64,000 bases of DNA from an uncultured Gammaproteobacteria bacterium (GTDB taxonomy: Bacteria; Patescibacteriota; Microgenomatia; 2-02-FULL-39-11), in NCBI GenBank assembly GCA_964446235.1, contig CAYUNW010000003.1:7182-71181 (forward strand). The letters run 5' to 3'. This document shows, one piece after another, positions 8,441-49,483 of this stretch. Within the stretch, counting starts at the first letter, position 1. The number at the start of each line of letters is the position of its first letter. Position numbers and translations under genes: made by a program. The notes under the pieces are model-generated. The model did not search any database. It was not told the origin of the DNA and worked only from the letters and a program-made list of their open reading frames with translations.

Positions 8441-8671
8441 ATGGAAGGACTTGATAGTACTTTATTTTCAGGTCTGACAATGATGCTTTTTAAAACGTGC
8501 ATGATTACCGTGTCGTTGATGTATCTTGCATTTGCTGCTGTGGTTTTGAAACAGACGAAATTAATGCTGAAAGTGATTGAGGCAAATATGTCAGGAATAA
8601 TTTATACAATTGCTCTTCTGCATCTTTTCGCGTCCATTTTTATTCTAATTTGGGCTATACTGTATTTATAG
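8441..8671 (+). CDS. Small membrane protein, unknown function
   Basis: 76 aa with two hydrophobic helices, packed between neighbouring genes. Confidence 0.35.
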   Translation: MEGLDSTLFSGLTMMLFKTCMITVSLMYLAFAAVVLKQTKLMLKVIEANMSGIIYTIALLHLFASIFILIWAILYL

Positions 8672-8677
8672 GTTAAT

Positions 8678-10474
8678 TTGACACAGTGTATGCTGACTAT
8701 AGGTGAAAGCGCCAAAATTACATCTCAAACAGATGCCAATAATTGGAGTGGGGTATTTTCCGAGGACGGATTGTTTTTATCATTGGAAATTACTACCAGT
8801 GATTCAGATGCGCAAAAATTTGGGAAAAAGATATTTGAAGAAATTATTGATTTACTTCGAGAAGCCAGTGTTGAAGAAAGTTTACTCCCTCAAATAGTCT
8901 TAAAAATGTCACATTATGACGAAATTGTCTCTGCTGTTTTCGGTTTGGTAGGCAAAGACAAGCTATACATTGGCGGGATCAGAGAGGGTGCTGCCTATAT
9001 GTATAGAGACGGAAGAGCCGGTCAGATTTTGGATGGGGAAGAATATGCGGTTGGCAGTATCAGAGATAACGACCGGATTTTGATTTTAGGCAAAAGATTA
9101 CACGATAAAATTGGTCCTGATAATTTGATAGAGTTTTTAAAAGAAGATAATTTTGACGATGCTTATTCGCTTATTGTGTCCAGATTAAGTCAGGATGATG
9201 AAATAAAAGGGGCTGCAGCTTTGTTTTTTGCTGTTGAAGATAAAGTAATTGATAAAGATATTAATGATCAGGATTTAACTTCATCCCAAAAGAAAAAAAA
9301 TATCTTTTTAAACACTGTACTATTAAAAATAAAAAACATTACATCTTTTAGCCGTTTTAGTAATTTAAAGCAAAGGATATTGATACTGGCTGCTATTTTG
9401 GTTGTTTTGATCCTTTCAATAAATATTTTTTCCGGCATAAAACAGAATTCTCTAAACGAAAAGAGCAAAAGATTAGACGAAACGGTAAATATCGTTAATC
9501 ATCAGTATAAAGAAGCTCTCAATTTGATTGATTTAAACCCCCAACGGGCAAGAGCATTGTTGTCCGACAGTAAATTGAGTTTATCACCTTTTTTGTCAGA
9601 ATTTGCTAAAAACTCCCGGGAATACAAAAAAATATCGGAATTACTTGGAAAAATATCAGAAAGCGAGACGATCGCATATAAAATTTATAAAATTACCCAG
9701 GCACCGATATTTTTTGACATCGGTTTGATAAAACCAGAAGGCGAAGGGGTAAAAATCGCTTCATTTCGCAAGCAAAAAGCAATTTTGGATACAAAAAACA
9801 AAGTAGTTTACGCACTGGAAACGACTACAAAAAAAACCGGTATTATCGCCGGCAGCGAGATTGTTAAAGATGCTCAGAATATAGCTGTATATGATACATC
9901 AGCATATATTGTAAATTCCGATGGGATTTATGAAATTGATTTGGAAGATAAAGAAATTGAATTGGTAGTTAAAAAAGATGACGAGTGGGGTAATATCGCG
10001 GATATAGCAACATTTGCCGGAAATGTATATTTACTGGACAAAGGCAATAATATGATTTGGAAGTATATCAAGACCGATTTTGGATTGTCAGATAGGACCA
10101 GGTATCTGAATACCGGAGCAGGGCTTGATATCAGTGATTCTGTCGGTATGACAATTGACGGTTCAGTGTGGGTATATAATTCAAGTGATATTTTGAAGTT
10201 TACCCAAGGTAATTACACAAACTTTATTTTTCAGGGATTTTCTGAATCGTTTCATAATATTGCATCTGTTTCAACTAGTGATATCGATAAATATTTATAT
10301 ATTTTGGATAAGGACATGGCAAGAGTGGTGGTTTTTGATAAGGACGGATTGTATCTTTCGCAATATCAATGGGAAGGTTTGCAAGATGCAACTGATATAG
10401 TGGTAAGTGAAGATGAAGACAAGCTATTTGTTTTAGTGCAAAGCAAAATTTACGCCTTTGATTTGAAAGACTGA
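8678..10474 (+). CDS. Hypothetical protein: degenerate PP2C-like N-domain, TM, C-terminal beta-propeller-like repeats
   Basis: 598 aa. It has a mid-protein TM (ILILAAILVVLILSINIF) and C-terminal repeats of the type ..YILD..G..I. TTG start at 8678, alternative ATG at 8690. Confidence 0.4.
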   Translation: MTQCMLTIGESAKITSQTDANNWSGVFSEDGLFLSLEITTSDSDAQKFGKKIFEEIIDLLREASVEESLLPQIVLKMSHYDEIVSAVFGLVGKDKLYIGGIREGAAYMYRDGRAGQILDGEEYAVGSIRDNDRILILGKRLHDKIGPDNLIEFLKEDNFDDAYSLIVSRLSQDDEIKGAAALFFAVEDKVIDKDINDQDLTSSQKKKNIFLNTVLLKIKNITSFSRFSNLKQRILILAAILVVLILSINIFSGIKQNSLNEKSKRLDETVNIVNHQYKEALNLIDLNPQRARALLSDSKLSLSPFLSEFAKNSREYKKISELLGKISESETIAYKIYKITQAPIFFDIGLIKPEGEGVKIASFRKQKAILDTKNKVVYALETTTKKTGIIAGSEIVKDAQNIAVYDTSAYIVNSDGIYEIDLEDKEIELVVKKDDEWGNIADIATFAGNVYLLDKGNNMIWKYIKTDFGLSDRTRYLNTGAGLDISDSVGMTIDGSVWVYNSSDILKFTQGNYTNFIFQGFSESFHNIASVSTSDIDKYLYILDKDMARVVVFDKDGLYLSQYQWEGLQDATDIVVSEDEDKLFVLVQSKIYAFDLKD

Positions 10475-10934: not shown

Positions 10935-11335
10935 GGGGATGCTTTGATCGACGGGAATGCACTTTGAAAAACAGCAAGCCGACTTTGATATACAGTCGTA
11001 AAACAAATATTGAAAAATAAATGCTAATAAAATAGCAGACAGGCTTTTTGCTTTAAACACCCTTACAGGTGGAAGGCAATTAGCTTATGCAACTGCTTGA
11101 ATAAAGTAGTTAGCATACGCTAGCAGTACTTTCTTCCGGTGAGGTAGGGCTAGTGTTTATTTAGCCGGAACGTCAGGTATCAATTGATTCGCTTGATACC
11201 GGAGAGAAAAAGAATCAAACTTTTTTTGGTTTATTTGTCGGTTATTGCCAAAAAAAGTAAATAAACCGACTAAGCTTGTAGAAGTTTTTTGAAAAGCTTC
11301 TTCGGACTCCGCCTCACTGGCGGACATCTCCACCA
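10935..11335 (+). ncRNA. ssrA: tmRNA (transfer-messenger RNA)
   Basis: The 5' end GGGGAUGCUUUGAUCGACGGG pairs with the 3' end AUCUCCACCA, including the G3:U pair. Putative tag frame 11023-11100 (ANKIADRLFALNTLTGGRQLAYATA*). Located after smpB. Confidence 0.85.
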
Positions 11336-29363: not shown

Positions 29364-29435
29364 TCCCCTGTAGCTCAACGGTAGAGCAGGAAGCTGTTAA
29401 CTTCAAGGTTCGTGGTTCGAATCCACGCGGGGGAG
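29364..29435 (+). tRNA. tRNA-Asn (anticodon GUU)
   Basis: Acceptor TCCCCTG/CGGGGGA, anticodon loop CTGTTAA, T-arm CGTGGTTCGAATCCACG. Confidence 0.85.
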
Positions 29436-31112
29436 CACTAATGGATTTTGAGTCCAAATTGCCTCTAATTGTTCTGTTGTAAGGCTCTGTTTCTTAGGTT
29501 CGAACAATGCGGATGTCGTCGGTTCGTGTTTTACGATTTCTATAAAGTATTCATACGGTCGTTCCACGTCCAGACGCAATAATTTGTTGAATAATTTTAG
29601 GTTCGAACCGATCGTGATGAGAATCTCACGCTTCTCCTGTAGAGTTCCGTGTTCAAACCAATATCGTGCGTGAACGGCGAAATTAAACGCCTTTTCCGCA
29701 TCCTCCATCCACTTATCAATCCTAAGACTTGTGTTTTTCAATCGTTCCTCAAGCGCTGTCTTTTCTTGTGTCAGTGTCAATTTCTTAGCTTTGAATTCTT
29801 CGTCAGAAAGTAAGGATCCGTCCGAATTTTGTGGAGATATCTTGAGCTTCAATAAATTATCCATCTCGTTTACACAGAGATTATATGAGTTTTGGAGGGA
29901 TGATAGCGTGGCATTTCTATCAGTTACTTCCTGTTCGTTAAGCTCATTGAGATATTTGATCGCCCAATTCTTAAATTCCTCCGAAATGTTTATACGCGAT
30001 AGAATGGTATCGATTTGTGTCTCGATGTCTTTCAAGTGGACGCATCCTTGAGTACAATTCTTGTTTTTACGTTTCGTGCAATGGTAGTAGATGTAATGAA
30101 GAATAGTCGGGTCGTTCATCGATTGAATGGTCGTTTGACACTTCGGACATCGATCTCTGTTTATCGAGGCGAATTTTTGCTTACAATGAGCACAAATTGT
30201 CTGCCATTTTTCCTCTGCCGTTATCATTGCCCCGCATTCTCCGCATGCCATCACACCCGTAAAAGAGAATTCACGAGTATGTGGCTTCGGTGAACCTTTT
30301 CGCTTGAGAAACATCTGGACTCTTTCAAACTCTACTTTGGTAATCATCGGTTTATGGTTTCCTTTGAACCATAACCCGCCTCCTACCGGGAATTCGAATA
30401 GACCATAGTAGAAAGGATCCATAAACATCCTGTATATTTGACTTCTGCACATCGGCTTTCCGCCAATAGATTTTCTTACAGGAGTACGATAGCCCCACTC
30501 GTTATTTAATCTTTCAAGAATTGCCGGAGGTGTGTAAGCACCGGTAAGCATCAAATCCCAACATTTTCTGATTAGAGGGAAACGGTCTGGATCTTCCTTT
30601 ATTGTCTTATTTCCCTTCTCTGCAAACTTGTCGTTCATATAGCCGGGCTTTGCTCCGGATGGAAGCCAGCCCTTCTCCGCTTTAGTTTTCAGTCCTTCTT
30701 TCACATTCTCACCTTTATGATCATTCTCAAATTTTGCCTGCATCATAAAAAAGCCAAGCATAAACTTATCCATTGGGTTATTACGAAAAGTTTGTGTTGG
30801 AGTCCTGACTTCCAGTAGTTTTCCACTGTCCATCAATGAGATAATTGTTGCCGCATCTTGAGGATTTCTTGAGAGCCTGTCCGGATGCCAAACTAATATG
30901 CTGTTTATTTCACCCGTTTCAATGAAGCTAATGAGTTCTCCAAACCCCGGTCTGCCCAGATTTTTTGCAGATTTGGATTCCGAGATAGTGCGAACAATTT
31001 GCAGTTCGTGCTTTTTTGCGACTCCAATAAGCTCTCTTGTTTGAGATTCAATTGACAAAACTTGCCGATCTTCACTCTCCGACGATTTTCTGCAATAAAT
31101 GAAGTATTTCAT
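29403..31112 (-). CDS. Large serine recombinase
   Basis: Resolvase domain YCRKSSESEDRQ..SIESQ..DRLSRN, a recombinase domain, Zn-ribbon CGECG..CAHC..CPKC, and a coiled coil. The last 11 codons read through the tRNA-Asn 3' end. Confidence 0.9.
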   Translation of the reverse strand: MKYFIYCRKSSESEDRQVLSIESQTRELIGVAKKHELQIVRTISESKSAKNLGRPGFGELISFIETGEINSILVWHPDRLSRNPQDAATIISLMDSGKLLEVRTPTQTFRNNPMDKFMLGFFMMQAKFENDHKGENVKEGLKTKAEKGWLPSGAKPGYMNDKFAEKGNKTIKEDPDRFPLIRKCWDLMLTGAYTPPAILERLNNEWGYRTPVRKSIGGKPMCRSQIYRMFMDPFYYGLFEFPVGGGLWFKGNHKPMITKVEFERVQMFLKRKGSPKPHTREFSFTGVMACGECGAMITAEEKWQTICAHCKQKFASINRDRCPKCQTTIQSMNDPTILHYIYYHCTKRKNKNCTQGCVHLKDIETQIDTILSRINISEEFKNWAIKYLNELNEQEVTDRNATLSSLQNSYNLCVNEMDNLLKLKISPQNSDGSLLSDEEFKAKKLTLTQEKTALEERLKNTSLRIDKWMEDAEKAFNFAVHARYWFEHGTLQEKREILITIGSNLKLFNKLLRLDVERPYEYFIEIVKHEPTTSALFEPKKQSLTTEQLEAIWTQNPLVLPRVDSNHEP

Positions 31113-31130
31113 ATCTCTCCTTTCAAAATA

Positions 31131-31214
31131 AATGCCCTCACTGGGTGTGCTCAGACCTGTTAGGATCTGTCCACAATGAGGGCATTAAAAATCCCAACAG
31201 GAATATCTGAGCAC
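31131..31214 (-). promoter_or_regulatory. Interleaved inverted repeats between the HTH gene and the recombinase gene
   Basis: AATGCCCTCA (31131-40) pairs with TGAGGGCATT (31177-86). GTGCTCAGA (31147-55) pairs with TCTGAGCAC (31206-14). On the minus strand the first hairpin is followed by TATTTTG, then an AAAGGAGAG RBS and the ATG. Confidence 0.45.
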
Positions 31215-31221
31215 AAATTTA

Positions 31222-31605
31222 TTATACACCCTTTTTCAAGATCATATTGGTGTTATTTAGATGTATCAAGCCGGAGATTTCAGCCATAACCAACCAAGCA
31301 TTCAGGTTACGCCGGGCAAGTTGAAGACCAATCTTGAGAAGTTCGTGTTTCATCTCCCTCATAAATTCTTCCTCTTGCATTTTTAACCAATCCTTGAAGC
31401 CCGGAATAGCTAACCACGAATAGTAGGTATTTCGATGAATACCGATTTCATCGGCGATTCGAGTCTTCGACGATGTACGAAGCTCAATAGATTTTGCCCA
31501 CCACTTAAACATTGCAGAGGTAGGCACGAATTTGTCGTTTTTTGCACAATTTTGCACAGTTTCGCCCATTTTTGTTTCGATTTGTTCGTCACTCATAATA
31601 GTCAC
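31222..31605 (-). CDS. HTH DNA-binding protein (possible regulator or directionality factor)
   Basis: ..SKTRIADEIGIHRNTYYSWL.. helix-turn-helix, positioned next to the recombinase. Confidence 0.45.
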   Translation of the reverse strand: MTIMSDEQIETKMGETVQNCAKNDKFVPTSAMFKWWAKSIELRTSSKTRIADEIGIHRNTYYSWLAIPGFKDWLKMQEEEFMREMKHELLKIGLQLARRNLNAWLVMAEISGLIHLNNTNMILKKGV

Positions 31606-31662
31606 TGCTTACTTGGAATAGTAAATTTACTATTTATAGTTACTGTTACTATATAGTTACTA

Positions 31663-32037
31663 TCAAAACGGTATTTCATCCGGTGAAACATTTTCACCCA
31701 ATTGGTTCTTCTTGCGTTCACTACCTGTTTTTTCGCAAAAAGCATCAAGGATTGAATCCGCTAAAGTTCTCCATAAAATTTTATCGTCAATATAAAATGC
31801 TCTCTTATATCCATCCTTCCCCTTCTTTGAACGGAAGGCGGGAGGATCGACACATAGTACGGGATCTTTCAACTTATTGAACGTTTTTAGTTTTATAGTG
31901 AACCCGACGACCTTAAATATCATTTGTTCATCCTTATTGAGAAAAATTGCATCCGCAAAACCGACAAGATTTTCACTCTCAATAGCAGTTACTTTGATAT
32001 CAATTTTTTCTATATTCATTTTCATCTCAATTTGCAT
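31663..32037 (-). CDS. SpoVG-like protein
   Basis: IKVTAIESENLVGFADAIF...FKVVGFTI and a later basic segment resemble the SpoVG fold pattern. The resemblance is weak. Confidence 0.35.
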   Translation of the reverse strand: MQIEMKMNIEKIDIKVTAIESENLVGFADAIFLNKDEQMIFKVVGFTIKLKTFNKLKDPVLCVDPPAFRSKKGKDGYKRAFYIDDKILWRTLADSILDAFCEKTGSERKKNQLGENVSPDEIPF

Positions 32038-32045
32038 AGATTCTC

Positions 32046-32276
32046 CTAGTAAGAAAAAATCATTCCTTTAAGAGTTTTAATCGCATCGGCGTATTCCTTT
32101 GCATTGACTATTTCTTCTCGGAACATAAACTTTTTTTGCACCTCTTCGCATTTATGTTTTTCTTCGAAAACAAACCAACATTGTTTACCAACTCGTTCAA
32201 TATCAATCATCTTGATATGTTTGGCGTACCATAGGCTTGCTAGATAGAGATCTTTTGTTTTAGCCGTATCTTTCAT
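32046..32276 (-). CDS. Small hypothetical protein (DUF5659-like pattern)
   Basis: LASLWYAKHIKMIDIERVGKQCWFVFEEK..VNAKEYADAIKTLKGMI. Start chosen at ATG 32276. Confidence 0.35.
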   Translation of the reverse strand: MKDTAKTKDLYLASLWYAKHIKMIDIERVGKQCWFVFEEKHKCEEVQKKFMFREEIVNAKEYADAIKTLKGMIFSY

Positions 32277-32328
32277 ACTTTTATATCGATTCGCCCTTTC
32301 TATAATCACTTGAGACTTATTCTTAGCT

Positions 32329-32559
32329 TCAGGAAAATGCTTCACGCTTCTTTTCCTGAAACGTTTTGGTCTTAATAAGCGAGTTGTACTGTTGTTTGGT
32401 AGGAAAGAAGAGAAATAAAGGACATTGAGTACAAGTACAAACTTGATATCCGTCTGCGAAGTATCCGAAGCATTCAGCACATTTGAGGCGGATGAGGAAT
32501 TTGAGTTGCCTGTTTTCTTCCTTAATGCCGTAGAACTTTTTCAATTTTGCCTTTTTCAT
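32329..32559 (-). CDS. Small Cys-rich (zinc-ribbon-like) protein
   Basis: CAEC..CTCTQC in 76 aa. Confidence 0.3.
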   Translation of the reverse strand: MKKAKLKKFYGIKEENRQLKFLIRLKCAECFGYFADGYQVCTCTQCPLFLFFPTKQQYNSLIKTKTFQEKKREAFS

Positions 32560-32602
32560 ATTCGTTTTAATCTAAAATCGTTATACTTTTTATTATCCAG
32601 CC

Positions 32603-32776
32603 TCAATCCTTATTTTCCTGAGCATTGGGGATAAAGCTGGGAATAGGACGATATATTATTTGGAATAACCTGAAAAGTCTCGTTCCTTGCTCGTCTGCTT
32701 TTTCCGGAGATATTTCTTTGCCAAACGTGCGTTTATATATCCGCCGGTATTCATCTACAGCTTGCTTTGAAAGCAT
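32603..32776 (-). CDS. Small hypothetical protein
   Basis: 57 aa from ATG 32776. The longer track ORF would overlap the upstream gene. Confidence 0.3.
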   Translation of the reverse strand: MLSKQAVDEYRRIYKRTFGKEISPEKADEQGTRLFRLFQIIYRPIPSFIPNAQENKD

Positions 32777-32819
32777 AACTTTCAAATTGTATGATTGCCT
32801 GAATAGAAGGACTTGGAGG

Positions 32820-33629
32820 TTAGCTGGAGATAAGTTGCAAGTAAATTTGCAGATCACATAAACGTGGTAGACGATAGCGATCCTTTAATCTGTAGTAGCG
32901 ATCTTGGAGTTTTTTCACTTCTTGGTCGCTTGTATTCAATTTTTTATCTTCGAGAATAAGTACAATTGCCGGTCTGACAATTCCGAGTTCATCTTCTTTT
33001 TTCCTCGGTAAATTGCTTTTATTACTCTTTTCGTCTTTAATGCACTGCTGGATATTTTTCTCGATGAGTAAATAGTTTTCTATATCTCTATCTTCTTTTG
33101 CTCCTTTTTGTTGGCGAGGCTCTTTTATTGAAAAGAACTTTTTAAACATCGCTTTAGCAAATTCTAAATCCGATATCACCTCCTCTCTTTTTGTATTTGG
33201 AAATACTTGTATATAAATACCTGGTTCAATTATTGGGTTCCCCTGAGGGAATATCATTCTAACTTCGGATCCTAACGAAAAATCCTTAAGAATCATACCC
33301 GTTAGAATATATTCTTCTAGTAAATAAGGATTAAGTTTTATAGAAATAGCAATGACGTGAATGGGACGTAGTAATTCCGATTGAAATCGTTGGTGAGCAA
33401 ATTTATTTCTTTCGCTTTCGACAGTAATATAAGAGAGTTCTTTCTTTATCTGTTCAATTCTACCTTTTGAGTTTTTAAATACCCACTTTACATAGTTTTC
33501 CCGACCATTCTTCAATCCTTTCGAAGGTATTTTAAGTTTTCTTCTTAAAGCTTTAATTACTTCGATTCCTACATAACTTTTGACAAATAATTCGAATCGT
33601 ACAAGATTGTATGGTTTTTCATTTTGCAT
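32820..33629 (-). CDS. Hypothetical protein
   Basis: 269 aa with no motif recognised. Confidence 0.4.
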   Translation of the reverse strand: MQNEKPYNLVRFELFVKSYVGIEVIKALRRKLKIPSKGLKNGRENYVKWVFKNSKGRIEQIKKELSYITVESERNKFAHQRFQSELLRPIHVIAISIKLNPYLLEEYILTGMILKDFSLGSEVRMIFPQGNPIIEPGIYIQVFPNTKREEVISDLEFAKAMFKKFFSIKEPRQQKGAKEDRDIENYLLIEKNIQQCIKDEKSNKSNLPRKKEDELGIVRPAIVLILEDKKLNTSDQEVKKLQDRYYRLKDRYRLPRLCDLQIYLQLISS

Positions 33630-33722
33630 AGATATCTTAATCTAATTTGAGCGTATTATATTATACTGACTGATTATAAGCAGAAGTAGGCAATAGTATG
33701 CACGATTCGAGGCTGAATTGAT

Positions 33723-34382
33723 TTAAGAGAACTTAAGATAGTCCACTTCTTGTTCCCATACAGGATCCAGCTTATTCTCATTCCAGACGAAGCGAAATAA
33801 GTTGTATCCTTTTGAGCAACAAAGTCCCTCACTACCGACTTGATCTGTTTGAATATAAAATCCGTTACCGTCCTTTGATTGTATTATCTTTGCTCTGACT
33901 AAATCTTGGATAGTAAAGATCAGGGTATTTCCCTTATAAATATCTATTCCGTGAGGGGTATGATTCATCCCTTCATTGAAAAGTACCAAAGTTTCATCAA
34001 TACCGTCACTATCAATATCGAATTGTTCGATGGAATTGATCCGCTTTTGTGCTATGTCTCCACTTTTTGAATACTGTTCCTCAATATTTCCGGAAATTGC
34101 TTTATTCAGGTTTTGATAGTTTAATTTTGTTTCTACTTTATGCGGTTTGGATCGTGGGGAATACTGATTTGCATAAGCTGAAATGTCATCCGATCCCCAA
34201 ACTTGTTGGAGATCATCGAAATACTCTTTTGGAATATCAATAATCTCATTTTGTATAGTTGAGCTCAAAAACGACTGAGTTTTATTGAGTTTCACCAATC
34301 TGTGTCCATCATTTTTTCCAAGAGAATATCCAAACAATAATAGTAAAAAAGAACCAGATAGGATTATAAGTATATTCTTCAT
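33723..34382 (-). CDS. Secreted hypothetical protein
   Basis: Signal-peptide-like N-terminus and a DIDSDGIDE calcium-site-like motif. Confidence 0.4.
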   Translation of the reverse strand: MKNILIILSGSFLLLLFGYSLGKNDGHRLVKLNKTQSFLSSTIQNEIIDIPKEYFDDLQQVWGSDDISAYANQYSPRSKPHKVETKLNYQNLNKAISGNIEEQYSKSGDIAQKRINSIEQFDIDSDGIDETLVLFNEGMNHTPHGIDIYKGNTLIFTIQDLVRAKIIQSKDGNGFYIQTDQVGSEGLCCSKGYNLFRFVWNENKLDPVWEQEVDYLKFS

Positions 34383-34392
34383 TTACGTTGAA

Positions 34393-34620
34393 TTATTCTT
34401 TTTCTGGAAATAAGAATTTTTTTAAGTGGTGCCTCAGCCACTCTTTTATATCCTTATGAAAAACTGAATCAACCAAAATAGTCAATGATATTAAAGCTAT
34501 TACAAAAACTACAAAAAGAGATGTTCCGTTTGCGATTGCTTTATCGGCGAAGAGAAAAATACTTATAGACCAAAATATAAGAATGATTATGAGTAATAGA
34601 AGTCCGGACGATAGTTTCAT
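34393..34620 (-). CDS. Small two-TM protein
   Basis: 75 aa with two hydrophobic helices. Confidence 0.35.
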   Translation of the reverse strand: MKLSSGLLLLIIILIFWSISIFLFADKAIANGTSLFVVFVIALISLTILVDSVFHKDIKEWLRHHLKKFLFPEKE

Positions 34621-34649
34621 AAAGAAAGGGACAGCCCTCCTCTCGCTAT

Positions 34650-34734
34650 CAGCCGGTCAGCTTCAAGGTCATCGAGGAAGAGCTGCCCCTTCCGTTGACC
34701 TTGAAGCCACATAAAACGTGCAGCTGACCGGCTG
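34650..34734. other. GC-rich nested inverted-repeat element (candidate structured RNA or DNA site)
   Basis: Three nested stems: CAGCCGGTCAGC/GCTGACCGGCTG, TTCAAGGTCA/TGACCTTGAA and GGAAG/CTTCC, with a 17-nt asymmetric bulge containing CAC..GTG. It sits between divergent genes. Confidence 0.6.
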
Positions 34735-34820
34735 TGTACTTGGATTATACACCAGAAATAACATCGGGAGCATAATATTAGTCTCAAAGCAGTATAATAA
34801 GAGCGAAATTTAGCATTATT

Positions 34821-37800
34821 ATGTTGAACTTAAAAACACCAATTTCGGTTTTACAATTATTAGAATTCCTACAAGAAAAAAGCAGCGTATTCTTGCGTCA
34901 ATTTAGGTATCAAGCGAAGAAAAAAATAAGCCCTCAAGACTTTCTTTCGGGTCGTGTACAAGGTGGTAAATTCCCAAAAGTGATTCGTAGAGATAGGATT
35001 AGTGTTCTTCCACAAAGTTTATCGGATCGATTATTCTTATTCATTTTTAGTCTTTTATTTATTTTTCTGACCGATATTTTAATCAAGCAATGGTTTTCTA
35101 CAAACCTTAAAATCTATTTGGATGGGATTGGATCCTTGGGAAATTTGGGAGCAGCTGCTTGGCAAGTGCTTGCCACTGTAATTTCTGTTGGTTTAGCTAC
35201 GATCGGCATTATATTACAAGCAATTAGCCAAGAAAAAAATGAATATAAACGGAAATTACTATTGCATCATTACTTTACAGTTCAACAGCTTGACTTCAAG
35301 ATTCTTTATTCTTTTTTTGTTTTGATATTAGCTGGTTTAGTACTTCTCTTTAAGGAAAAGATGTTCTTATATCCCTTCTTAAGTGAGCATATTTTTGTTG
35401 TTTTCGCTTTAATAGTTATTTTTGTATATATTTTTGCTCGGTTGATTATAAAGAGTTTTGACTATCTGTTTCCAGAAAACCAGAGTAAATATTTCGACTA
35501 TTCGCTTCAAAATAGATTGTTGTATTTAATCCAAGAATCAGCAAGGAGTTTAATTCTAATTGACGTGCTCCAATTGCAATTAAATTCATTAGAAATGGGG
35601 ATAAGATACTTATATGATGAGCAGGATAAGAAGAAACTAAATATGGCTGTTATAGAAACTTCACAAAAAGGAAGTATCGAAGATATTGATCTTGCATTAT
35701 TAAAAAGTCTGTCTAAATTATTAGGCAAGAAATACATCAAAGAAGAAAAGGGTAAATCACCAGTTAAAGCAGAGTTGTATATTGAATACGGTAGACAAGA
35801 ACAACGTATAAAACAACCTTTAGCTATCGTCCACAAAGATAATTACTCAGATAAAATTGTTCATCTTTTCAAACAAGCAATAATACTATCGACACTTCTT
35901 CCACCTAAAATCGAATATGACTTACAAGAATATCTTGATTGGATATGGGATCAAGTTAGAGAGGATCTGAAAAATGAAAAAGTCGGGGTTATAAAAGATA
36001 ATCTTAGAAATCTATATGACTTTTTTGAAAACTCTTTGACTATTTTTGGTAGTTACAAAAAAGAGTATAAAATCGAGGATGGTGCATCCATAGATAACTG
36101 GGATTTTCTTAATAAGCTTCGTAGACAATATTTCGTAATCCTTGACTCTGCATACGGCAATAAAAGTGCTTTTGAACCGTTATTTTCACTAAATTATTTT
36201 CCGTTCGCGTTGATGCAGAGAGCTATATATCAAAATAATAAAACTCAATTTACTCAATCTTCGGAACTTATTGTTTGGGTGTATAAGTATCTTTTTAAAT
36301 TTAATCATCCGAGACAGAATGATCTAAGAGAAAACTTCTTCTTGACCAACCTTAATTTTGCTCAATTTTATTTACTTGGAGGTCGAGAAGATTTTAAGGA
36401 GAATTTTAATAAGCGGAAATTCTACCTTTGGGTGTATCTAAGAACACAAATAAATATTATTAGAAGAGCATTAGAATTCGGCGACAATAGGACTGTAACT
36501 GAGATTTTATCAATTATTGAAAAACTAATTAAAGAAACATCTTATTGGCAGGAGCAAATACCTTATATAGATCTCAAAGAAAACGTATTAACACCACAAG
36601 AGGAATTTAGGTCAAATTGGTATGCAATGATTCTTGGGGTACAAGCGTGGGTTTTTCAACAATATGAAACCGGGGGTATCGATAGAGATAAATTTAATAT
36701 TCTTGCTTCTGTTTCTTTATGGTCTGATATCTTTAGTTTAACTAACACATTTTCCGTAGCAATTGGGCAAGATCTTGAACACATTATGAGTTGGGACTGG
36801 TGGAGTTTTGAAAAGCGCTCATATCTTAATGATGGAGGTAGTTTTGGTGGGTTTGAAAATGAGATATGCAAATGGTATGTAATTCAGGCAATCAAGCTAT
36901 TATCAAAAGTTCAAGAGAGTGAGATCCCAACACAAAAGAGATTGCTGAAAGATAAAGATACATATTTTAAACTCCTTATATCTCCCAACGGAACAATTTA
37001 TGCATTTCTTGAGTTGTTAAAGAAAGATGGTGATAAATATCTATTTTTATTTAATGATCTCGATAAGAATAGTTTAAACAAAAATATCGAGAAGCTCAAA
37101 AACTACCTAAAACTGACTCTAGAAGATAATGAGGTCTCGAAGAAAAACGCTCTTATTAGCGCTTCGATTGAAAATAGCAAAATAAACAAGTTCAAACAGA
37201 GTTTTATCTCAGGATATGAAAAGAATTCAAAAATTAGAAAAATTGCCAAAACCAAGAAAATTGTTACTTTAGCTTTGAAACAAACAGGGAAACCCTTTTT
37301 TGGTATCCACGTCCTATTAGACAAAGAACCCTTTACTTCATTATCTATAATGGATTATGACACTATAGCAGAGCATTACGGTCAGCAAATGGCTGATGTT
37401 GAAGATTACTTGATTATTAAAGAAATCTTCAACTCTAAAAATCCAACTACCAAACTCTCATACAATGCTTCAAATGTAAAATTAAAGCTGGATGCATATT
37501 TATCAACGATTGATAAAAACCAAATAAAAAGCACGTATATTTTAATCTTAGGGAGTGCGACTCTTCGTCACGAACTTCATAGAGATCCTGAATATAAGTG
37601 GTCAGGAGGTAAAAGCAATAGAATCACATTCGATGAATATAAAGGTATTAAAATATATTGGACAAATATTGGTAAGGAAAACGGCGTAGTTGTGGTGGAT
37701 ATGAAAAATGCGTTTAAAGTAGTCCAGAAAAAGCCCAATATAGAGAAGGGTGAAATGATTTCAAAAGACAAGCATATAGCTTTTCTTATAGCTCAACTAA

Positions 37801-37976
37801 CGGATAATGAGGTCGATGAGATATTTAAGAATAGACCTCAAGATAGTAATAAAGATCAAATAAAAACGAATGTTCGCTTTTGGAGTTTTGTCAATGCTGA
37901 GGTTGAAATTGTAAAACCCTCTTTGGTATTTAAGATAGCGATGCAAACAGATGAGATGGTGGCTACAAAGAGTTAA
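34821..37976 (+). CDS. 1051-aa orphan protein, N-terminal multi-TM region plus large helical soluble region
   Basis: Long uninterrupted ORF. TM helices lie within roughly residues 70-215. No P-loop or nuclease motif was seen. Confidence 0.6.
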   Translation: MLNLKTPISVLQLLEFLQEKSSVFLRQFRYQAKKKISPQDFLSGRVQGGKFPKVIRRDRISVLPQSLSDRLFLFIFSLLFIFLTDILIKQWFSTNLKIYLDGIGSLGNLGAAAWQVLATVISVGLATIGIILQAISQEKNEYKRKLLLHHYFTVQQLDFKILYSFFVLILAGLVLLFKEKMFLYPFLSEHIFVVFALIVIFVYIFARLIIKSFDYLFPENQSKYFDYSLQNRLLYLIQESARSLILIDVLQLQLNSLEMGIRYLYDEQDKKKLNMAVIETSQKGSIEDIDLALLKSLSKLLGKKYIKEEKGKSPVKAELYIEYGRQEQRIKQPLAIVHKDNYSDKIVHLFKQAIILSTLLPPKIEYDLQEYLDWIWDQVREDLKNEKVGVIKDNLRNLYDFFENSLTIFGSYKKEYKIEDGASIDNWDFLNKLRRQYFVILDSAYGNKSAFEPLFSLNYFPFALMQRAIYQNNKTQFTQSSELIVWVYKYLFKFNHPRQNDLRENFFLTNLNFAQFYLLGGREDFKENFNKRKFYLWVYLRTQINIIRRALEFGDNRTVTEILSIIEKLIKETSYWQEQIPYIDLKENVLTPQEEFRSNWYAMILGVQAWVFQQYETGGIDRDKFNILASVSLWSDIFSLTNTFSVAIGQDLEHIMSWDWWSFEKRSYLNDGGSFGGFENEICKWYVIQAIKLLSKVQESEIPTQKRLLKDKDTYFKLLISPNGTIYAFLELLKKDGDKYLFLFNDLDKNSLNKNIEKLKNYLKLTLEDNEVSKKNALISASIENSKINKFKQSFISGYEKNSKIRKIAKTKKIVTLALKQTGKPFFGIHVLLDKEPFTSLSIMDYDTIAEHYGQQMADVEDYLIIKEIFNSKNPTTKLSYNASNVKLKLDAYLSTIDKNQIKSTYILILGSATLRHELHRDPEYKWSGGKSNRITFDEYKGIKIYWTNIGKENGVVVVDMKNAFKVVQKKPNIEKGEMISKDKHIAFLIAQLTDNEVDEIFKNRPQDSNKDQIKTNVRFWSFVNAEVEIVKPSLVFKIAMQTDEMVATKS

Positions 37977-38492: not shown

Positions 38493-39461
38493 TTATTTCC
38501 CATCTTTAGTATCTCGATAAAGAAACTTGTAAGATTCGACCGACAGCCTAACCGCTTCTGGTATTTGTGATTCAGCATTTAAATAAATGTAGCTGATACC
38601 ATTGGTCCAATGCCCCTTTTTACTGCAATCCTCGATTATTAGGGTGGATTCCAAGTATTTAACCGGGAAGCGGTAATAAATTTTCAATCCCTGTTGCTGG
38701 GGAACGATCTCAACATAATTCACCCATTCTTTCCCTCTGTGCCCGGAATACGCGATGTACTGTTTCGTGTATTTTGTGCGGGTTTCAATATTATTTTTGA
38801 GCAGTTGATTCTCAAACTCCTCAAGAAGTTCCCGGCTATCTGTCCAGCTTGGTTTCGCTACATCATCAAGGGTATATACTTTGACTTCCTTGAGTACATT
38901 TTGCGTGGTTTTGTCTTTCGAGAATTTCCCAATGGGCTCGCTAGTCCTGTATGGTTTTATAGGGTTGTAGAGAATAGTATGATTATCGTACAGTTTTGCT
39001 TCATAAAGATAGATTGGTAGATCCTTGAAGTTGATGGCGTTTTTCTGATAATTGGTGAATTCTGGGGAGACAAAAATTACACGGGATGACTCCCAATCGA
39101 TATCCTTCTTTGTGAAGTTTTTATGAAGCCTTTCGTTCAACTCAAGAACGAAATCTGCTTTGTGGTTAAGCATAGCGGAAAGATACGCAAATCCCTGATC
39201 TATAACACTAAAACTTTTGTCTTTTTTGTATTCGATGATGATAAACGACTTTTGTGCTTCATCGAAAGCGAGGGTATCGATATAGAAGTCCTGTTCTTGT
39301 GCTCGAATACTGAATTCTTGATTGAGTGATCCGCTCACAAATTTTAAACCGAAGATTGTATCGAGATTCTTTTCAGTCAGACTTTGAATGTCGTTTTCAA
39401 GATTAAACTTCTTTTCCGAAATCTCCTTTAACTTGTCATTGCTGATAGAAAAGATAGACAT
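38493..39461 (-). CDS. PD-(D/E)xK nuclease-fold protein (NucS/DUF4268-like)
   Basis: YIDTLAFDEAQKSFIIIEYKKDKSFSVIDQGFAYLSAM gives the D..ExK..Q..Y core. Confidence 0.55.
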   Translation of the reverse strand: MSIFSISNDKLKEISEKKFNLENDIQSLTEKNLDTIFGLKFVSGSLNQEFSIRAQEQDFYIDTLAFDEAQKSFIIIEYKKDKSFSVIDQGFAYLSAMLNHKADFVLELNERLHKNFTKKDIDWESSRVIFVSPEFTNYQKNAINFKDLPIYLYEAKLYDNHTILYNPIKPYRTSEPIGKFSKDKTTQNVLKEVKVYTLDDVAKPSWTDSRELLEEFENQLLKNNIETRTKYTKQYIAYSGHRGKEWVNYVEIVPQQQGLKIYYRFPVKYLESTLIIEDCSKKGHWTNGISYIYLNAESQIPEAVRLSVESYKFLYRDTKDGK

Positions 39462-42312: not shown

Positions 42313-43204
42313 GAAGCGGAAAAAGTCGCCGGAAGTGTACGGTTTGAATCTCGCAAGAGATGAAGAAGTAACGGCTTTATACCGAAGCGGTTTAACACTA
42401 CAACAAATAGGAAATAAATACGGAATCACAAGATCACGTATTCAACAAATCGTTTTTAGGACTCTACGCAGAAAGATTGTAAGCGAAATAAGACACCGCC
42501 TTAGAACAAACCCTGATAGAATGCCCATAAAGATCTTGGTTAAAGAGGAAATTAAGAGAATTCGAAACACGAAGCGAGAAAAGTGGTTAAAAACCAAGTT
42601 GATTGAAAAAGCGGAAAAAGGAATCGTCCCCGAAAAATTCACTTCGGAATTGAAGTTTGCTTCCGCGTTGGGTCTTCCGATTGAAATAATACGAGAATTT
42701 GCTCCGGATTTGATTACCGTGATCAAAAATAATAAAACCACGGGATATGGAGGTAGAAAATGGAGTAGACATTATTTACGTTGCAGAATGTGCGGCACAA
42801 TTAGTGTTCCTCATAAAATGTGGGGATGTTGCGAAAACTGTTATTATAAAACTGAAAATTTTAAAGAAATACAAGCTGCTTCGAGGTTAAGGAACCTGCA
42901 TAGATGGCTTCCAAAACAGCGAAAGTATCAATTGGAACATTACGATAAAGTAAACTATGGAGGAAATAGAAAAAAGGTGCTCGATCGAGACGGGTATAAA
43001 TGCATAAAATGTTCGGTTACGGAAGAAGAGAGTATAGAACGATACGACGAGAGACTAAGAGTAGTTCATTTGGGAGCGATTGAAAATAACGAATTGGACA
43101 ATTTGGCAACATTTTGTCGAAATTGTTGGATGAAACAACTGAGGAAAAGAAGGACAATCAAGCAAACCGATACGCAAAATCGTCAATCACCGGCGATTCG
43201 ATAG
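42281..43204 (+). CDS. Sigma-70 region-4-like HTH fused to an HNH endonuclease domain
   Basis: N-terminus LYRSGLTLQQIGNKYGITRSRIQQIV. C-terminus DRDGYKCIKC..LRVVHL..N..DNLATFCRNCW. Confidence 0.6.
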   Translation: MTQKEKTRRYKKRKKSPEVYGLNLARDEEVTALYRSGLTLQQIGNKYGITRSRIQQIVFRTLRRKIVSEIRHRLRTNPDRMPIKILVKEEIKRIRNTKREKWLKTKLIEKAEKGIVPEKFTSELKFASALGLPIEIIREFAPDLITVIKNNKTTGYGGRKWSRHYLRCRMCGTISVPHKMWGCCENCYYKTENFKEIQAASRLRNLHRWLPKQRKYQLEHYDKVNYGGNRKKVLDRDGYKCIKCSVTEEESIERYDERLRVVHLGAIENNELDNLATFCRNCWMKQLRKRRTIKQTDTQNRQSPAIR

Positions 43205-44195
43205 ATTCCGCCTTTATTTGTTTCTTAGACGGCTTCAAAAATCTGATTATTCTTCGTGCAATAGCTTCAACTACCGGAACGGAAACGGTATTGCCGAATT
43301 GTTTGTATGCCTGATTGTCGGAAACGGGGATTTTATAATCTTCCGGAAAGCCTTGTAATCTTGCGCATTCTCTTGGAGTAAGTGTTCTGAGTCCCAAACA
43401 GTTCTTTGCAGATTTATTCATTCCTTCCCTGTAGAAATATTCTCTGATCGGTTCTTTAATCAGATTTCTTTCCCTTCCCATTCGTCCGACTACGAGAGAG
43501 TTCGCAGTTCCGTTCAGATCGACCACTTCGTAACCCCAACCGTGACCCTTCGCTCTATGGTAGGCTTTATGTCGAGCCAAACACTCATAATATCTTTGAG
43601 ATATAAAGTATTTTACGTCTGCTTCTTCCTTTTCCAAAATATCCCCGACCTTTAATTTTTCGCCCGTCGGTTCGGGAAAATCGAAATTCACCTTTTTACT
43701 GAAACCTACAATATAAATGCGTTCTCTATTTTGCGGCAACCCGAAGTCTTTGCTGTTTATAACCTTATAAAATATATGATAACCCAATTTGTTCACCAAA
43801 ATATCTTTAATCACTCCGAATGTTTCTCCTCGATGGTGTCTCTCAAGAAACTTAACATTCTCGAGGAAAAATGCTTTAGGTATCTTATCGGTTAAAATAC
43901 GCTCGATTTGAAAGAACAAATTTCCTCTGGGGTCTTCAAACCCCTTTTTTCCTCCCGCCAAGGAGAAGGGTTGACAGGGAAAGCCAGCAAGCAGGATATC
44001 GAAATCCGGTATTTCGGAAGAAGGAACATCTTTTATATCCCTTTGATCGATATCTCCGAAATTTGTACGGTAGGTTTGACAACAATAGCGATCGATTTCG
44101 TTCGAATATGCGATTTTGAATCCCGCACGTTCGAATCCCAAACGTATCCCTCCTATTCCGGCAAATAAATCGACAGCTTTTAACCTATGGATCAT
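43158..44195 (-). CDS. dcm: DNA (cytosine-5)-methyltransferase
   Basis: DLFAGIGG, GFPCQPFS, ENV, QNRERIY, TPRECARLQGFP. Confidence 0.95.
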   Translation of the reverse strand: MIHRLKAVDLFAGIGGIRLGFERAGFKIAYSNEIDRYCCQTYRTNFGDIDQRDIKDVPSSEIPDFDILLAGFPCQPFSLAGGKKGFEDPRGNLFFQIERILTDKIPKAFFLENVKFLERHHRGETFGVIKDILVNKLGYHIFYKVINSKDFGLPQNRERIYIVGFSKKVNFDFPEPTGEKLKVGDILEKEEADVKYFISQRYYECLARHKAYHRAKGHGWGYEVVDLNGTANSLVVGRMGRERNLIKEPIREYFYREGMNKSAKNCLGLRTLTPRECARLQGFPEDYKIPVSDNQAYKQFGNTVSVPVVEAIARRIIRFLKPSKKQIKAESIESPVIDDFAYRFA

Positions 44196-44230
44196 AAAAC
44201 TATAATATACCTTAAAAATAACCAGTTCAA

Positions 44231-44665
44231 TTGACCAATTTGATTATGAGCGATATATTTTCCTCTCAAAAAAGAAGCGAAATAATGTCAAAGGTTAAGT
44301 CCAGAAATACTAATATTGAACTTCTCCTCAGACGGGCATTGTTTAGAAAAGGATACCGATTCAGATTGCATTATCGTATCTCCGGTACTCCGGACATTGT
44401 ATTGCCTTCCAAAAAGATTGCTATATTTTGTGATGGTGATTTTTGGCATGGTAAACATTTTAAACGAGAAAACATAAATTACAAAAAATTCTGGAAAAAT
44501 AAAATAAAAGCCAACATAATACGAGATAAAAAAGTGAATACCAAATTGCGTAAAGATGGGTGGAAAGTGATAAGATTTTGGAAGTCGGAAATTCTCAAGA
44601 ATCTCGATCGTTGTGTGGATACAATCGAACAAACTCTTGAGAAATTAAATAATAGCAAAGCTTGA
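44231..44665 (+). CDS. vsr: Very-short-patch repair endonuclease
   Basis: RSEIMSKVKSRNT.IE, PDIVLP..KIAIFCDGDFWHG. Confidence 0.9.
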   Translation: MTNLIMSDIFSSQKRSEIMSKVKSRNTNIELLLRRALFRKGYRFRLHYRISGTPDIVLPSKKIAIFCDGDFWHGKHFKRENINYKKFWKNKIKANIIRDKKVNTKLRKDGWKVIRFWKSEILKNLDRCVDTIEQTLEKLNNSKA

Positions 44666-44733: not shown

Positions 44734-44825
44734 AAAAGTTTCGGATGTTATCCATCTCCCGGAGCTAACAAATTGGGAGCAATACAACGCTCCTTTTTTT
44801 TGTAACCCAATAGGACGATAAAATT
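44734..44825 (+). repeat. Intergenic repeat family, copy A
   Basis: aaaagtttcggatgttatcc..gggagcaatacaacgctccTTTTTTTTgt..taggacgataaaatt. Confidence 0.75.
44776..44801 (+). terminator. Intrinsic terminator within repeat copy A
   Basis: GGAGC-aatacaac-GCTCC followed by T8, downstream of vsr. Confidence 0.6.
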
Positions 44826-45038: not shown

Positions 45039-46772
45039 ATGCAGAACAATAAATTAGAAAATACCCTATCTTCACTATCTGATTTGCCTATTGTCAGGGA
45101 AAATTCACTCCTTTCTAAAAGAATAGACAGTTTGAAGAAAAGACTGGAAAAGAACGAATTCCAGCTTGTGATACTTGGCCAGTTTAAAAGAGGGAAAAGC
45201 ACCCTGATAAATTCCCTACTTGGCGAACAGATATTACCAACGTCAATTGTACCTTTGACTTCAATTATTACCGTCCTTAAATATAATAAAACCCAAAATA
45301 TTACTGTTTTATTTATTGATAACCATACGAAAAAAATAACCTTCTCCCAATTACCTGATTATGTGACAGAAGGAAAAAATCCAAACAATATTAAACAAGT
45401 TGAGCAGGTTATTATTGAATACCCATCAGAATACCTTAAAAATGGCATCCAGATAATTGATACACCAGGAGTAGGTTCTGTTTACCAGCACAATACGGAT
45501 GTTGCCTATGACTTTGTCCCAAAAGCTGACGCTGGAATTTTTCTCTTTACCGCTGACCCCCCAATCAGTGAATCTGAACTGAAATTTCTGACAGCCATAA
45601 AAGATTATCTGGGTAAGATTATATTTGTCCAAAACAAAATAGACCAGATTTCAGAAAAGGATAGGGAGGAATCACTGGAATTTACCAAAAAAATCATAAA
45701 AGAAACTGTAGGAGCAAAAGAGTTGGTATTTTACCAAATATCGGCAAAATTAGGCTTTGAAGGAAAAAAGGGCAAAGACAGTAAGAAACTAATGGAAAGC
45801 AAATTGCCAATGTTTGAGGAAGGACTAAACCATATTTTCACCAGCCAAAAAGCACACATAATCACAAAATCAATAACAAAAAAGTTGCTTTTAGCAGTAA
45901 AAGAAATAAATCTGATGCTTGCCATTGAGGAGCAGTCTGTCTCCATGCCAATTGCCATCTTGAAAGAGAAAATTACCGCTTTTAATAAAGAACTTACGGT
46001 AATAAAACAGGAAAAGGAAGATAATGATTATATTCTTCAGGGCAAGCTGGAAAAACTGGTCAATCAGACTTTGATTGATGACATTGAAATCCTGAAAGAG
46101 AAAGAACTTCCAGCAATACTGTGTGCATTTGAGCAGTTTTTCAAATCCCACCAGGATAAAAGCGGAATAGAACTATCCGCACTCCTTGATAAATTCCTGG
46201 AAAAATCAATCAAGAAAATATTTGGAAGCTGGAGGATAGAAGAAGAAAGGAAACTTCAGAAATCCCTTGAATCCATTTTGGACAGGTTTTCTTCCCAGAC
46301 CAACAATTTTATAAGTAGAGCAATTGAATTATCCGCAAGTCTATTTAACTTAAAAATTGGAGAACTAAAAACAGAGACCAGCTTTAAAGAAGAGTACGAA
46401 TTCAAATTTTCCTTTGACGAATATCAGGTTGACTTGGATTTTTATACTCCTGTCGTATCAAGACTGCCTAAGTTTCTTTCCCATAAACTTCTTTATAAAA
46501 ACATGAGGGATAAGGTTATCCAGGAATTTGATAAACACTCTGGACGAAGCAGGTATGATTTCCATCAGCGTGTTTTACAGAGTATAAATGAATTTAGGGA
46601 TAACCTTGACGAAAGACTGAATGAAATTATTGAAGGAATCAATATTGCTATGAAAAAGGGGTTGTTACAAAGGGAGAAAGCAGAAAGTACAGAGAAAGAA
46701 GTAGCTAAGTCCTTACGAGCCCAGAAAAGCATTCTTTCCCAGATTTCAACTCACTTATATTTATTTGGATAA
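45039..46772 (+). CDS. Bacterial dynamin-like GTPase
   Basis: G1 GQFKRGKST, G3 DTPGVGS, G4 QNKID, followed by a long helical stalk. Confidence 0.75.
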   Translation: MQNNKLENTLSSLSDLPIVRENSLLSKRIDSLKKRLEKNEFQLVILGQFKRGKSTLINSLLGEQILPTSIVPLTSIITVLKYNKTQNITVLFIDNHTKKITFSQLPDYVTEGKNPNNIKQVEQVIIEYPSEYLKNGIQIIDTPGVGSVYQHNTDVAYDFVPKADAGIFLFTADPPISESELKFLTAIKDYLGKIIFVQNKIDQISEKDREESLEFTKKIIKETVGAKELVFYQISAKLGFEGKKGKDSKKLMESKLPMFEEGLNHIFTSQKAHIITKSITKKLLLAVKEINLMLAIEEQSVSMPIAILKEKITAFNKELTVIKQEKEDNDYILQGKLEKLVNQTLIDDIEILKEKELPAILCAFEQFFKSHQDKSGIELSALLDKFLEKSIKKIFGSWRIEEERKLQKSLESILDRFSSQTNNFISRAIELSASLFNLKIGELKTETSFKEEYEFKFSFDEYQVDLDFYTPVVSRLPKFLSHKLLYKNMRDKVIQEFDKHSGRSRYDFHQRVLQSINEFRDNLDERLNEIIEGINIAMKKGLLQREKAESTEKEVAKSLRAQKSILSQISTHLYLFG

Positions 46773-46848: not shown

Positions 46849-46922
46849 AAAAGTAGTTCCTGATTTCGTACATCAGGTGGAATACAAGATTTAAAGGGAA
46901 TGTTACAACGCTCCTTTTTGTT
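46849..46922 (+). repeat. Intergenic repeat family, copy C
   Basis: aaaagtagttcc-CCTGATttcgtacATCAGG-..gggaatgttacaacgctccTTTTTgtt. Confidence 0.7.
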
Positions 46923-46944
46923 ATATTTTTGATATAATAAGTTA

Positions 46945-48714: not shown

Positions 48715-48770
48715 TAACTATAAAAATTTATGCTTTTTTCTCAACGGTAACTATTTTGATGATTATTATT

Positions 48771-48861
48771 CCTAACAGTTCGGATAATATCCACTAGGGG
48801 GAGCCAAATAATTAGGAGCATTACGACGGTCTTTTTTTGTTCCCTAGTAGGACGATAGAAC
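48771..48861 (+). repeat. Intergenic repeat family, copy B
   Basis: cctaacagttcggataatatccactagggggagcc..aggagcattacgacggtcTTTTTTTgt..taggacgatagaac. Its 5' part resembles the tRNA-Asn 3' end. Confidence 0.75.
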
Positions 48862-49225: not shown

Positions 49226-49483
49226 ATGAAAATACAAGTATTAGGTTCAGGTTGCACTACATGTAAAAATCTTTATGAAATAACCCAAAAAGCTGTAAAG
49301 GAAATGAGCAATAGTGCAGAAGTGGAATATATTACAGGCGATGAAGGAATGAGAAAAATTATTGAACTGGGAGCAATGAACAGCCCTGTTTTGTTGGTAA
49401 ACGGAAAAATTGCCATGACTGGATTTACTTCTGATATAGAGAAAATAAAGGAAAAGATAAAAGTAGTTTTTGAAGAAAAATAA
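49226..49483 (+). CDS. Small thioredoxin-fold protein (Thioredoxin_3 type)
   Basis: MKIQVLGSGCTTCKNL.. CxxC motif, 85 aa. Confidence 0.75.
   Translation: MKIQVLGSGCTTCKNLYEITQKAVKEMSNSAEVEYITGDEGMRKIIELGAMNSPVLLVNGKIAMTGFTSDIEKIKEKIKVVFEEK

Follow-up and report, generated by a model that had tools for sequence, protein, structure and literature searches.

The window that we analyzed, a 64,000-nt (64-kb) stretch of DNA, contains a leftward operon in which all genes from position 34620 down to that of a serine recombinase are on the minus strand. Its first member is a 75-aa open reading frame (ORF) with two TM segments (34393 to 34620, minus strand), which shows a weak match to a PHROG holin (E = 0.007) and, though it lies behind a strong, conserved translation initiation region (TIR), does not appear in the gene calls displayed for the JGI and Logan contigs of identical sequence. 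The rest of the backbone (29403 to 34382, minus strand), recognized by its synteny with related loci (L022, L034/L037, and L038 to L048), encodes in order proteins of 219, 269, and 84 aa, a 76-aa Zn finger protein, a DUF5659 protein, a 124-aa protein, a TerS-like HTH protein, and the large serine recombinase (29403 to 31112). Between the last two genes, a GC-rich stem at ~31131 to 31186 (minus strand; AAUGCCCUCA...UGAGGGCAUU, then UAUUUU; z = -3.4) precedes UUUAUUUU just before the recombinase SD and looks like a terminator or an attenuator. The 3' end of the recombinase gene runs antisense over the 3' half of an intact tRNA-Asn gene (29364 to 29436; overlap, 29403 to 29436), which forms the left junction of an island. 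Since the recombinase 3' end overlaps the tRNA in antisense, the element supplies the recombinase C terminus together with part of the tRNA; similarly, at a related locus (L009, 13820 to 13928) the recombinase is antisense over a tRNA-Ser(gga). A decayed tRNA-Asn-like sequence at 48729 to 48806 (plus strand), in which the D-arm (CTCAACGGTA) and the 3' end (ATCCAC..GGGGGAGC) match tRNA-Asn and the middle has diverged, is probably the displaced attachment site at the right end of the ~19-kb island. Given the recombinase/tRNA-Asn overlap and this remnant, the island probably spans ~29.4 to 48.8 kb.

To the right of the leftward operon, and divergent from it, is an orphan gene (34821 to 37976, plus strand) encoding a 1,051-aa protein with N-terminal TM segments, for which no Pfam, PADLOC, or PHROG match was found. 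The island further carries defense-like cargo on this side, namely, a PDC-S18 candidate (38493 to 39461, minus strand; E = 5e-87), a C5 DNA methylase with a divergent Vsr, and a LeoA/LeoBC-like dynamin GTPase (43158 to 44665 and 45039 to 46772). Four terminator-like sequences that are 72 to 78% identical (44771 to 44802, 46892 to 46923, 48810 to 48841, and 49365 to 49396), each consisting of GGGAGCAATACAACGCTCC and a T-run, stand behind one consecutive gene after another, at the island's right end and immediately outside it.

The start codons of the 75-aa ORF (34620, minus strand) and the 1,051-aa gene (34821, plus strand), as well as a TATAAT at 34793 to 34798, lie where an earlier sequence-only reading of this DNA had placed them. 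Between the two genes is a GC-rich element at 34650 to 34734, and inspection of its sequence yields 27 perfect pairs in three stems, exactly as that reading had described: 12 pairs between CAGCCGGTCAGC (34650 to 34661) and GCTGACCGGCTG (34723 to 34734), 10 between TTCAAGGTCA (34662 to 34671) and TGACCTTGAA (34696 to 34705), and 5 between GGAAG (34676 to 34680) and CTTCC (34689 to 34693). Folding shows the element to be a three-way junction of stems P1, P2, and P3, and the stretch with CAC..GTG that had been taken for a bulge of 17 nt folds into P2 (34708 to 34720, minus strand), a side hairpin that is small and conserved and reads CACGU-UUU-AUGUG in the window and ACGC-UUUU-GCGU in the two homologues described below (L022 and L034). 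On minus-strand RNA, the 5' and 3' arms of P1 read CAGCCGGUCAGC (34723 to 34734) and GCUGACCGGCUG (34650 to 34661) and those of P3a read UUCAAGGUCA (34696 to 34705) and UGACCUUGAA (34662 to 34671). The apical hairpin P3b (34672 to 34695, minus strand; GGAAGGG-GCAG-CUCUUCC plus internal-loop bases), in which the apical stem grows on this strand from 5 to 7 pairs by way of a G·U pair, is complementary to positions 34621 to 34645 and is designated the "anti-TIR."

The hairpin is real, and its stability is exceptional for the window. The 200-nt interval containing it folds with z scores of -4.0 (plus strand) and -5.3 (minus strand), with 0 of 200 shuffles folding as well, and the z scores of the minus-strand folds range from -5.3 to -7.1. 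Among 6,390 windows of 100 nt covering both strands of the 64 kb, the most stable fold is that of the hairpin (-51.7 kcal/mol, minus strand; window mean, -14.6; standard deviation [sd], 5.4), and every tRNA gene in the window is less stable. A search of the 64 kb at up to 3 mismatches recovered no second copy; the element is single copy in the window.

A metagenome scan for both P1 arms at a distance of 45 to 75 nt recovered 22 loci, of which 2 (L022 and L034), both on low-GC groundwater metagenome contigs, are true homologues, and the remaining 20 are unrelated high-GC sequences that match by chance. Some of these high-GC loci (L014, L015, L024, L026, L028, L031, and L032) contain short GCTGA/TCAGC-type runs in both orientations around the CAGCCGGTCAGC arms, which may represent a separate repeat family of soil bacteria. 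A further contig (L037), from a metagenome-assembled genome (MAG) assigned to Patescibacteria in GTDB, carries the same element as L034 and breaks just past the hairpin. Searches with the 219-aa protein recovered only the identical protein, which occurs on three contigs whose intergenic region matches that of the window at 100%; the window-identical contigs come from JGI and Logan metagenomes, and related elements are found in Patescibacteria MAGs. The window itself has the appearance of a groundwater Patescibacteria genome of low GC content. We therefore aligned three independent copies, those of the window, L022, and L034 (alignments A1 and A4). A covariance model built from them (R1) found no further copies in ~350 kb of related loci, where the conserved sequence occurs only at the same operon head (the window, L022, and L034/L037). 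Scans of genomes with the inner stem recovered nothing, those of viral contigs (four DNA patterns and one protein query) gave chance matches or nothing, and a blastn search against a phage collection gave no match.

The alignments delimit a conserved cassette of ~130 nt (34618 to 34749, minus strand) that comprises, in order on the minus strand, a -10-like hexamer, 5 variable nt, TACA, the P1/P2/P3 junction, a linker, the SD, a mini-hairpin, a U-run, and the AUG. It is this cassette, and not the hairpin by itself, that is conserved as a unit, which the sequence-only reading had missed along with the junction and the match between the hairpin tip and the ribosome-binding region. Its pairwise identity across the three copies is 76 to 89% (mean column identity in A4, 90%). 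The flanks are far less conserved: the upstream flank is 35 to 42% identical among the three copies, and the downstream flank is 33 to 36% identical between the window and the other two, which share 87% with each other. Of the backbone proteins, the Zn finger is 64% and the 269-aa protein 24% identical between the window and L022. Conservation stops at the ATG; the first gene encodes the 75-aa protein in the window, and in L022 and L034 the same TIR precedes a gene for a TM/coiled-coil protein of 152 aa. The genes downstream of the cassette differ between the three elements and are not metabolic. Within the cassette, variation falls mostly in loops and junctions, where the bases are C or A in J1/2 and G or A in J2/3, the linker has the consensus A(U/A)AGCGAGA, and the SD is GGAGG(G), with GAGAGGAUUGGG at this place in L022. 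The invariance of P1 in all three copies is due in part to the use of its arm as the search key. The cassette defines a conserved, previously undescribed, and rare motif, most likely a leader RNA, and the rarity (three copies in very large collections) limits the breadth of the finding. It heads an operon whose products range from small membrane proteins to the serine recombinase and which is part of a rare family of Patescibacteria elements that integrate at tRNA genes.

Several observations favor an RNA transcribed from the minus strand. The minus-strand fold is better than the plus-strand fold by 8.6 to 9.1 kcal/mol in 3 of 3 copies. Each pair that forms outside the Watson-Crick set is G·U when read on the minus strand, for which the plus strand would have A·C; such pairs occupy alignment columns 59-66 in all three copies, columns 29-36 of P2 in the window, where L022 and L034 have G-C instead, and columns 54-72 in L022. 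Just one pair is broken, at a position of P3a where L022 and L034 have G·G. Overall, 98% of the alignment cells are paired, and this value falls to 27 to 52% when the partners are slid by 1 to 3 columns. The earlier reading had proposed a covariation analysis of homologous regions as a check. Covariation of the nested helices among these three sequences is not significant, as the single compensatory change (at the basal pair of P3, from U-A in the window to C-G in the other two copies) is matched in 170 of 500 shuffles.

The -10-like hexamer (34744 to 34749, minus strand; TATAAT in the window, CATAAT in L022, and CACAAT in L034) always lies 9 nt before P1. From this, we infer that there is probably a promoter whose -10 element sits 9 nt upstream of P1, with transcription predicted to start near 34735 to 34738, within the conserved TACA. 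A consensus promoter scan made no minus-strand call at the cassette, where a good -35 element is absent, and nothing upstream of the -10-like hexamer is conserved in the three-copy alignment.

On its other side, the hairpin is followed by the TIR (34618 to 34649, minus strand), which consists of the linker AUAGCGAGA, the SD GGAGG (34636 to 34640), a mini-hairpin (GGG-CUGU-CCC, 34628 to 34637), UUUCUUU, and the AUG (34618 to 34620); on the minus strand, the GGAGG is 9 nt past the hairpin, closer than the about 15 nt first estimated. By itself, the TIR folds at -5.6 to -8.4 kcal/mol with the SD partly sequestered. The P3b apex and the TIR are inverted repeats of each other in DNA, and as RNA they can pair over ~21 nt (21 pairs and -37.5 kcal/mol for the window in RNAduplex). 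When the apex was compared to both strands of the 64 kb, its own antisense aside, the TIR was its best target, at -37.5 kcal/mol versus -28.9 for the next unrelated site (mean, -10.2; sd, 3.7). The cognate duplexes of L034 and L022 reach -33.7 and -29.0 kcal/mol, respectively. For the window and L034, exchanging partners between copies weakens the duplex by 8 to 9 kcal/mol relative to the cognate one, while the cognate duplex of L022 is no better than the pairing of L022 with the TIR of the window. The two loops (apex/TIR) read GCAG/CUGU in the window, GCAG/UUGU in L022, and GUGA/UUAC in L034, such that the four loop-loop pairs are intact in all three copies (12 of 12 cells); each of the four varies between copies, two of them with changes on both sides. 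In L034, CGAGAGGAGGGTTACCCCTTTATG, which comprises the SD, the mini-hairpin, and the ATG, precedes both the first and the second genes of the operon (8586 to 8610 and 9066 to 9090, minus strand). A simple switch in cis is unlikely, since a nested alternative fold in which the apex is paired to the TIR is 9 to 14 kcal/mol worse than the junction fold; this difference makes a loop-loop contact or pairing in trans the more likely mode of any interaction, though at 4 nt the complementary loops are short for kissing.

We also compared the hairpin with known classes of elements. In the Rfam/Infernal comparison that the sequence-only reading had suggested, it matched no family of Rfam 15: nothing overlapped it at an E value of ≤10 in the interval 33000 to 36500, 151-nt scans gave only miRNA-precursor-like matches of 11 to 18 bits (versus thresholds of 48 to 108), and the C4 model did not match it at an E value of ≤10 on either strand. 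The Rfam gathering scan of the window recovered only tRNAs and one tmRNA (10935 to 11335, plus strand; 120.6 bits), for which ARAGORN gave no call. That the hairpin is not a terminator for either adjacent gene had been anticipated from its position, and this holds: neither strand has a U-tract after it, it sits between diverging genes with no co-oriented gene upstream, and a terminator scan made no call. An attachment site of the serine integrase was rejected, as the hairpin is internal and the junctions lie at the tRNA-Asn gene and its remnant (~48729 to 48806); likewise rejected was a tRNA-derived attachment site, because a 9-nt match to tRNA-Asn (CTTCAAGGT) is at chance level, with many 9-mers of the window matching equally. 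Comparison with integron attC sites and ssoA-like origins revealed neither R'/R'' core sites nor an IntI or Rep protein; TAGCGA beside the hairpin reads AAGCGA in L034. A dispersed repeat of the REP/MITE type is not consistent with one copy in 64 kb and occurrence in related loci only at the same operon head.

The 1,051-aa protein has nine homologues in 5.8 billion clusters, and the hairpin was found in none of the six homologue loci that were fetched (within L002 to L010 and L058 to L060), which led us to reject a link between the hairpin and this gene. Relatives with the same synteny (L009, L059, L038 to L041, and L058) have at the equivalent divergent junction a gene for a cI-like HTH_31 protein and no hairpin; in L009 and L059, this gene adjoins true homologues of the 1,051-aa gene on the recombinase-distal side. 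The 1,115-aa protein of L038 was considered as a further homologue, but the similarity was not significant, and that locus supports only the synteny of the backbone. Elements of the window type are without such an HTH gene at the divergent junction.

Our preferred interpretation, which we hold with moderate confidence, is that the hairpin, as a three-way junction, forms the core of a cis-acting 5' leader RNA of ~130 nt, which is conserved, is made from the minus strand, heads the leftward operon, and acts on translation initiation or mRNA stability. A structured leader of the minus-strand operon was among the options listed in the sequence-only reading, and it is favored by the fixed distance of the hairpin from the SD, the ATG, and the -10-like hexamer, by the wobble pairs confined to the minus strand, and by the ~9 kcal/mol advantage of the minus-strand fold. 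An independent noncoding RNA, another of those options, would be retained only as a processed product of this leader. In the mechanism that we propose, the long clamp formed by P1 and P3a would give the mRNA a very stable structure at its 5' end, or close to it, and thereby protect it, and would also present the P3b apex. The apex could then contact the mini-hairpin of the TIR, whether through kissing of the two loops in cis or, once the RNA has been processed, through more extensive pairing in trans, and such contact would set the accessibility of the first gene's SD and AUG; in L034, its effect could extend to the second gene as well. Translation-coupled polarity might in turn set the expression of the whole operon.

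The alternative that survives best, though we consider it unlikely, is that the junction is a plain 5'-terminal stabilizer that blocks 5'-end-dependent decay, the match between the apex and the TIR being an incidental product of hairpins built from purine and pyrimidine runs. The fixed 9-nt spacing of the -10-like hexamer would indeed put P1 only a few nt from the 5' end, and the very high stability of the junction and its 9- to 14-kcal/mol advantage over the fold with apex-TIR pairing are what such a stabilizer would display. Yet it would need structure and not sequence, and the sequence is 76 to 89% conserved versus 24 to 64% for the neighboring proteins; moreover, the apex and TIR loops stay complementary through changes, and the TIR stands out as the top target of the apex in the window.

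A bolder form of the leader hypothesis, which we find rather doubtful, would make the RNA a switch, or a form of RNA-based immunity, that replaces the cI-like HTH_31 repressor of the relatives. The apex of the junction RNA, which might first be processed, would pair with the hairpin at the ribosome-binding site (RBS) of the first gene or genes and silence the operon, including the recombinase, when the element is integrated, by a logic like that of P4 CI and P1 C4 that would have evolved independently in Patescibacteria.

Quite unlikely, in our view, is a function at the DNA level, which the sequence-only reading had offered as a site for recombination, replication, or transfer of the island. 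The apex and the TIR would then be two inverted, near-palindromic operators of ~20 bp, ~50 bp apart, bound by a protein of the element, or else the locus would adopt a cruciform or single-strand structure for replication or transfer. The inverted DNA repeat of the apex and TIR, with its spacing of about five helical turns, would suit a pair of operators, and strong sequence conservation is also expected of a protein-binding site; the concerted changes in the apex and TIR could reflect two copies of such a site or gene conversion, and an element without the cI-like HTH of its relatives would be expected to have another control site. Against this, every departure from perfect pairing gives G·U on a single strand, the minus strand folds better in each copy, and the asymmetric P2 arm and the 22 bp of the P1/P3a stems make no sense as operators. 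Neither relaxase, Rep, nor HUH protein was detected. The recombination, replication, or transfer site is thus weakened by a hairpin that is internal, away from the island ends, has arms unrepeated elsewhere in the window, and is asymmetric.

The terminator-like hairpin before the recombinase gene prompted us to consider an antiterminator RNA like put of HK022, in which the leader would modify the polymerase for processive read-through, including that of this hairpin; we regard this as improbable. The cassette is promoter proximal at the head of a ~5-kb unidirectional operon, a GC-rich stem and UUUAUUUU do occur at ~31131 to 31186 (minus strand) between the HTH and recombinase genes, and an RNA that contacts the polymerase would show high sequence conservation. 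However, the leader has no similarity to any Rfam family and forms a closed three-way junction in place of two free stem-loops, and antitermination leaves the apex-TIR complementarity unexplained. Finally, a chance palindrome or a selfish REP/MITE-type repeat with no role in the element is very hard to credit, for although the arm pattern matched 20 unrelated high-GC contigs by chance, the hairpin is present in a single copy in 64 kb, lies at the same place relative to the SD and ATG in three elements, and folds better than all 200 shuffles.

We return to the cis-acting leader. To our knowledge, almost nothing is known of gene regulation in Patescibacteria and their mobile elements, and we know of no cis-regulatory RNA in Rfam that is specific to Patescibacteria. 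The cassette offers a compact candidate, a junction leader whose tip matches the RBS, with the match kept through loop changes in three elements. If the leader does regulate the operon, whose last gene encodes the integrase, then the excision and maintenance of these elements would be controlled at this point, and the leader would also exemplify the use of an RNA where relatives use a protein repressor.

The arrangement invites comparison with several known systems. The same four-segment logic of anti-SD, SD, and anti-anti-SD found in ermC-type attenuators, riboswitch expression platforms, and RNA thermometers can be laid over this leader: the 5' strand of P3b pairs with its 3' strand and the SD pairs with the pyrimidine run before the AUG, and cross-pairing of the P3b 3' strand with the SD and of the P3b 5' strand with the pre-AUG run is also possible. 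Unlike in attenuators, a 22-bp clamp (P1 and P3a) locks the first pairing here, with the alternative being 9 to 14 kcal/mol worse, and neither a leader peptide nor a recognizable ligand-binding junction is apparent. Stem-loops that act as 5'-terminal stabilizers are known from the ompA 5' untranslated region and the ermC and aprE leaders of Bacillus. These share with our cassette a very stable stem a few nt from the (here predicted) 5' end, followed by a strong SD, but here sequence and not structure alone is conserved, and in its branching and its match to the TIR the leader is more elaborate than a stabilizer. The put sequences of HK022 act as antiterminator RNA and resemble the present leader as a promoter-proximal structured RNA heading the long operon of a temperate element; the topology here differs.

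The C4 RNA of P1 and P7 and the CI RNA of the satellite phage P4 are co-transcribed, processed antisense RNAs with targets in the same transcript. In P4, it is the CI RNA, and not a protein, that keeps the replication genes from being expressed during lysogeny (PMC4825925), and both CI and C4 are hairpin-like substrates of RNase P (PMC5499578). The present leader differs from them in that it is a three-way junction with no Rfam match, has complementary loops of only 4 nt, and belongs to a Patescibacterium host. Although membership in their family is not supported, C4 and CI appear to be its closest functional analogues. As in those systems, a regulator and its complementary target would share one transcript and one orientation at the operon head of a mobile element; the apex is complementary to an RBS-containing target downstream on the same predicted transcript, the target overlaps the ribosome-binding region, and in the relative L034 there are two copies of it.
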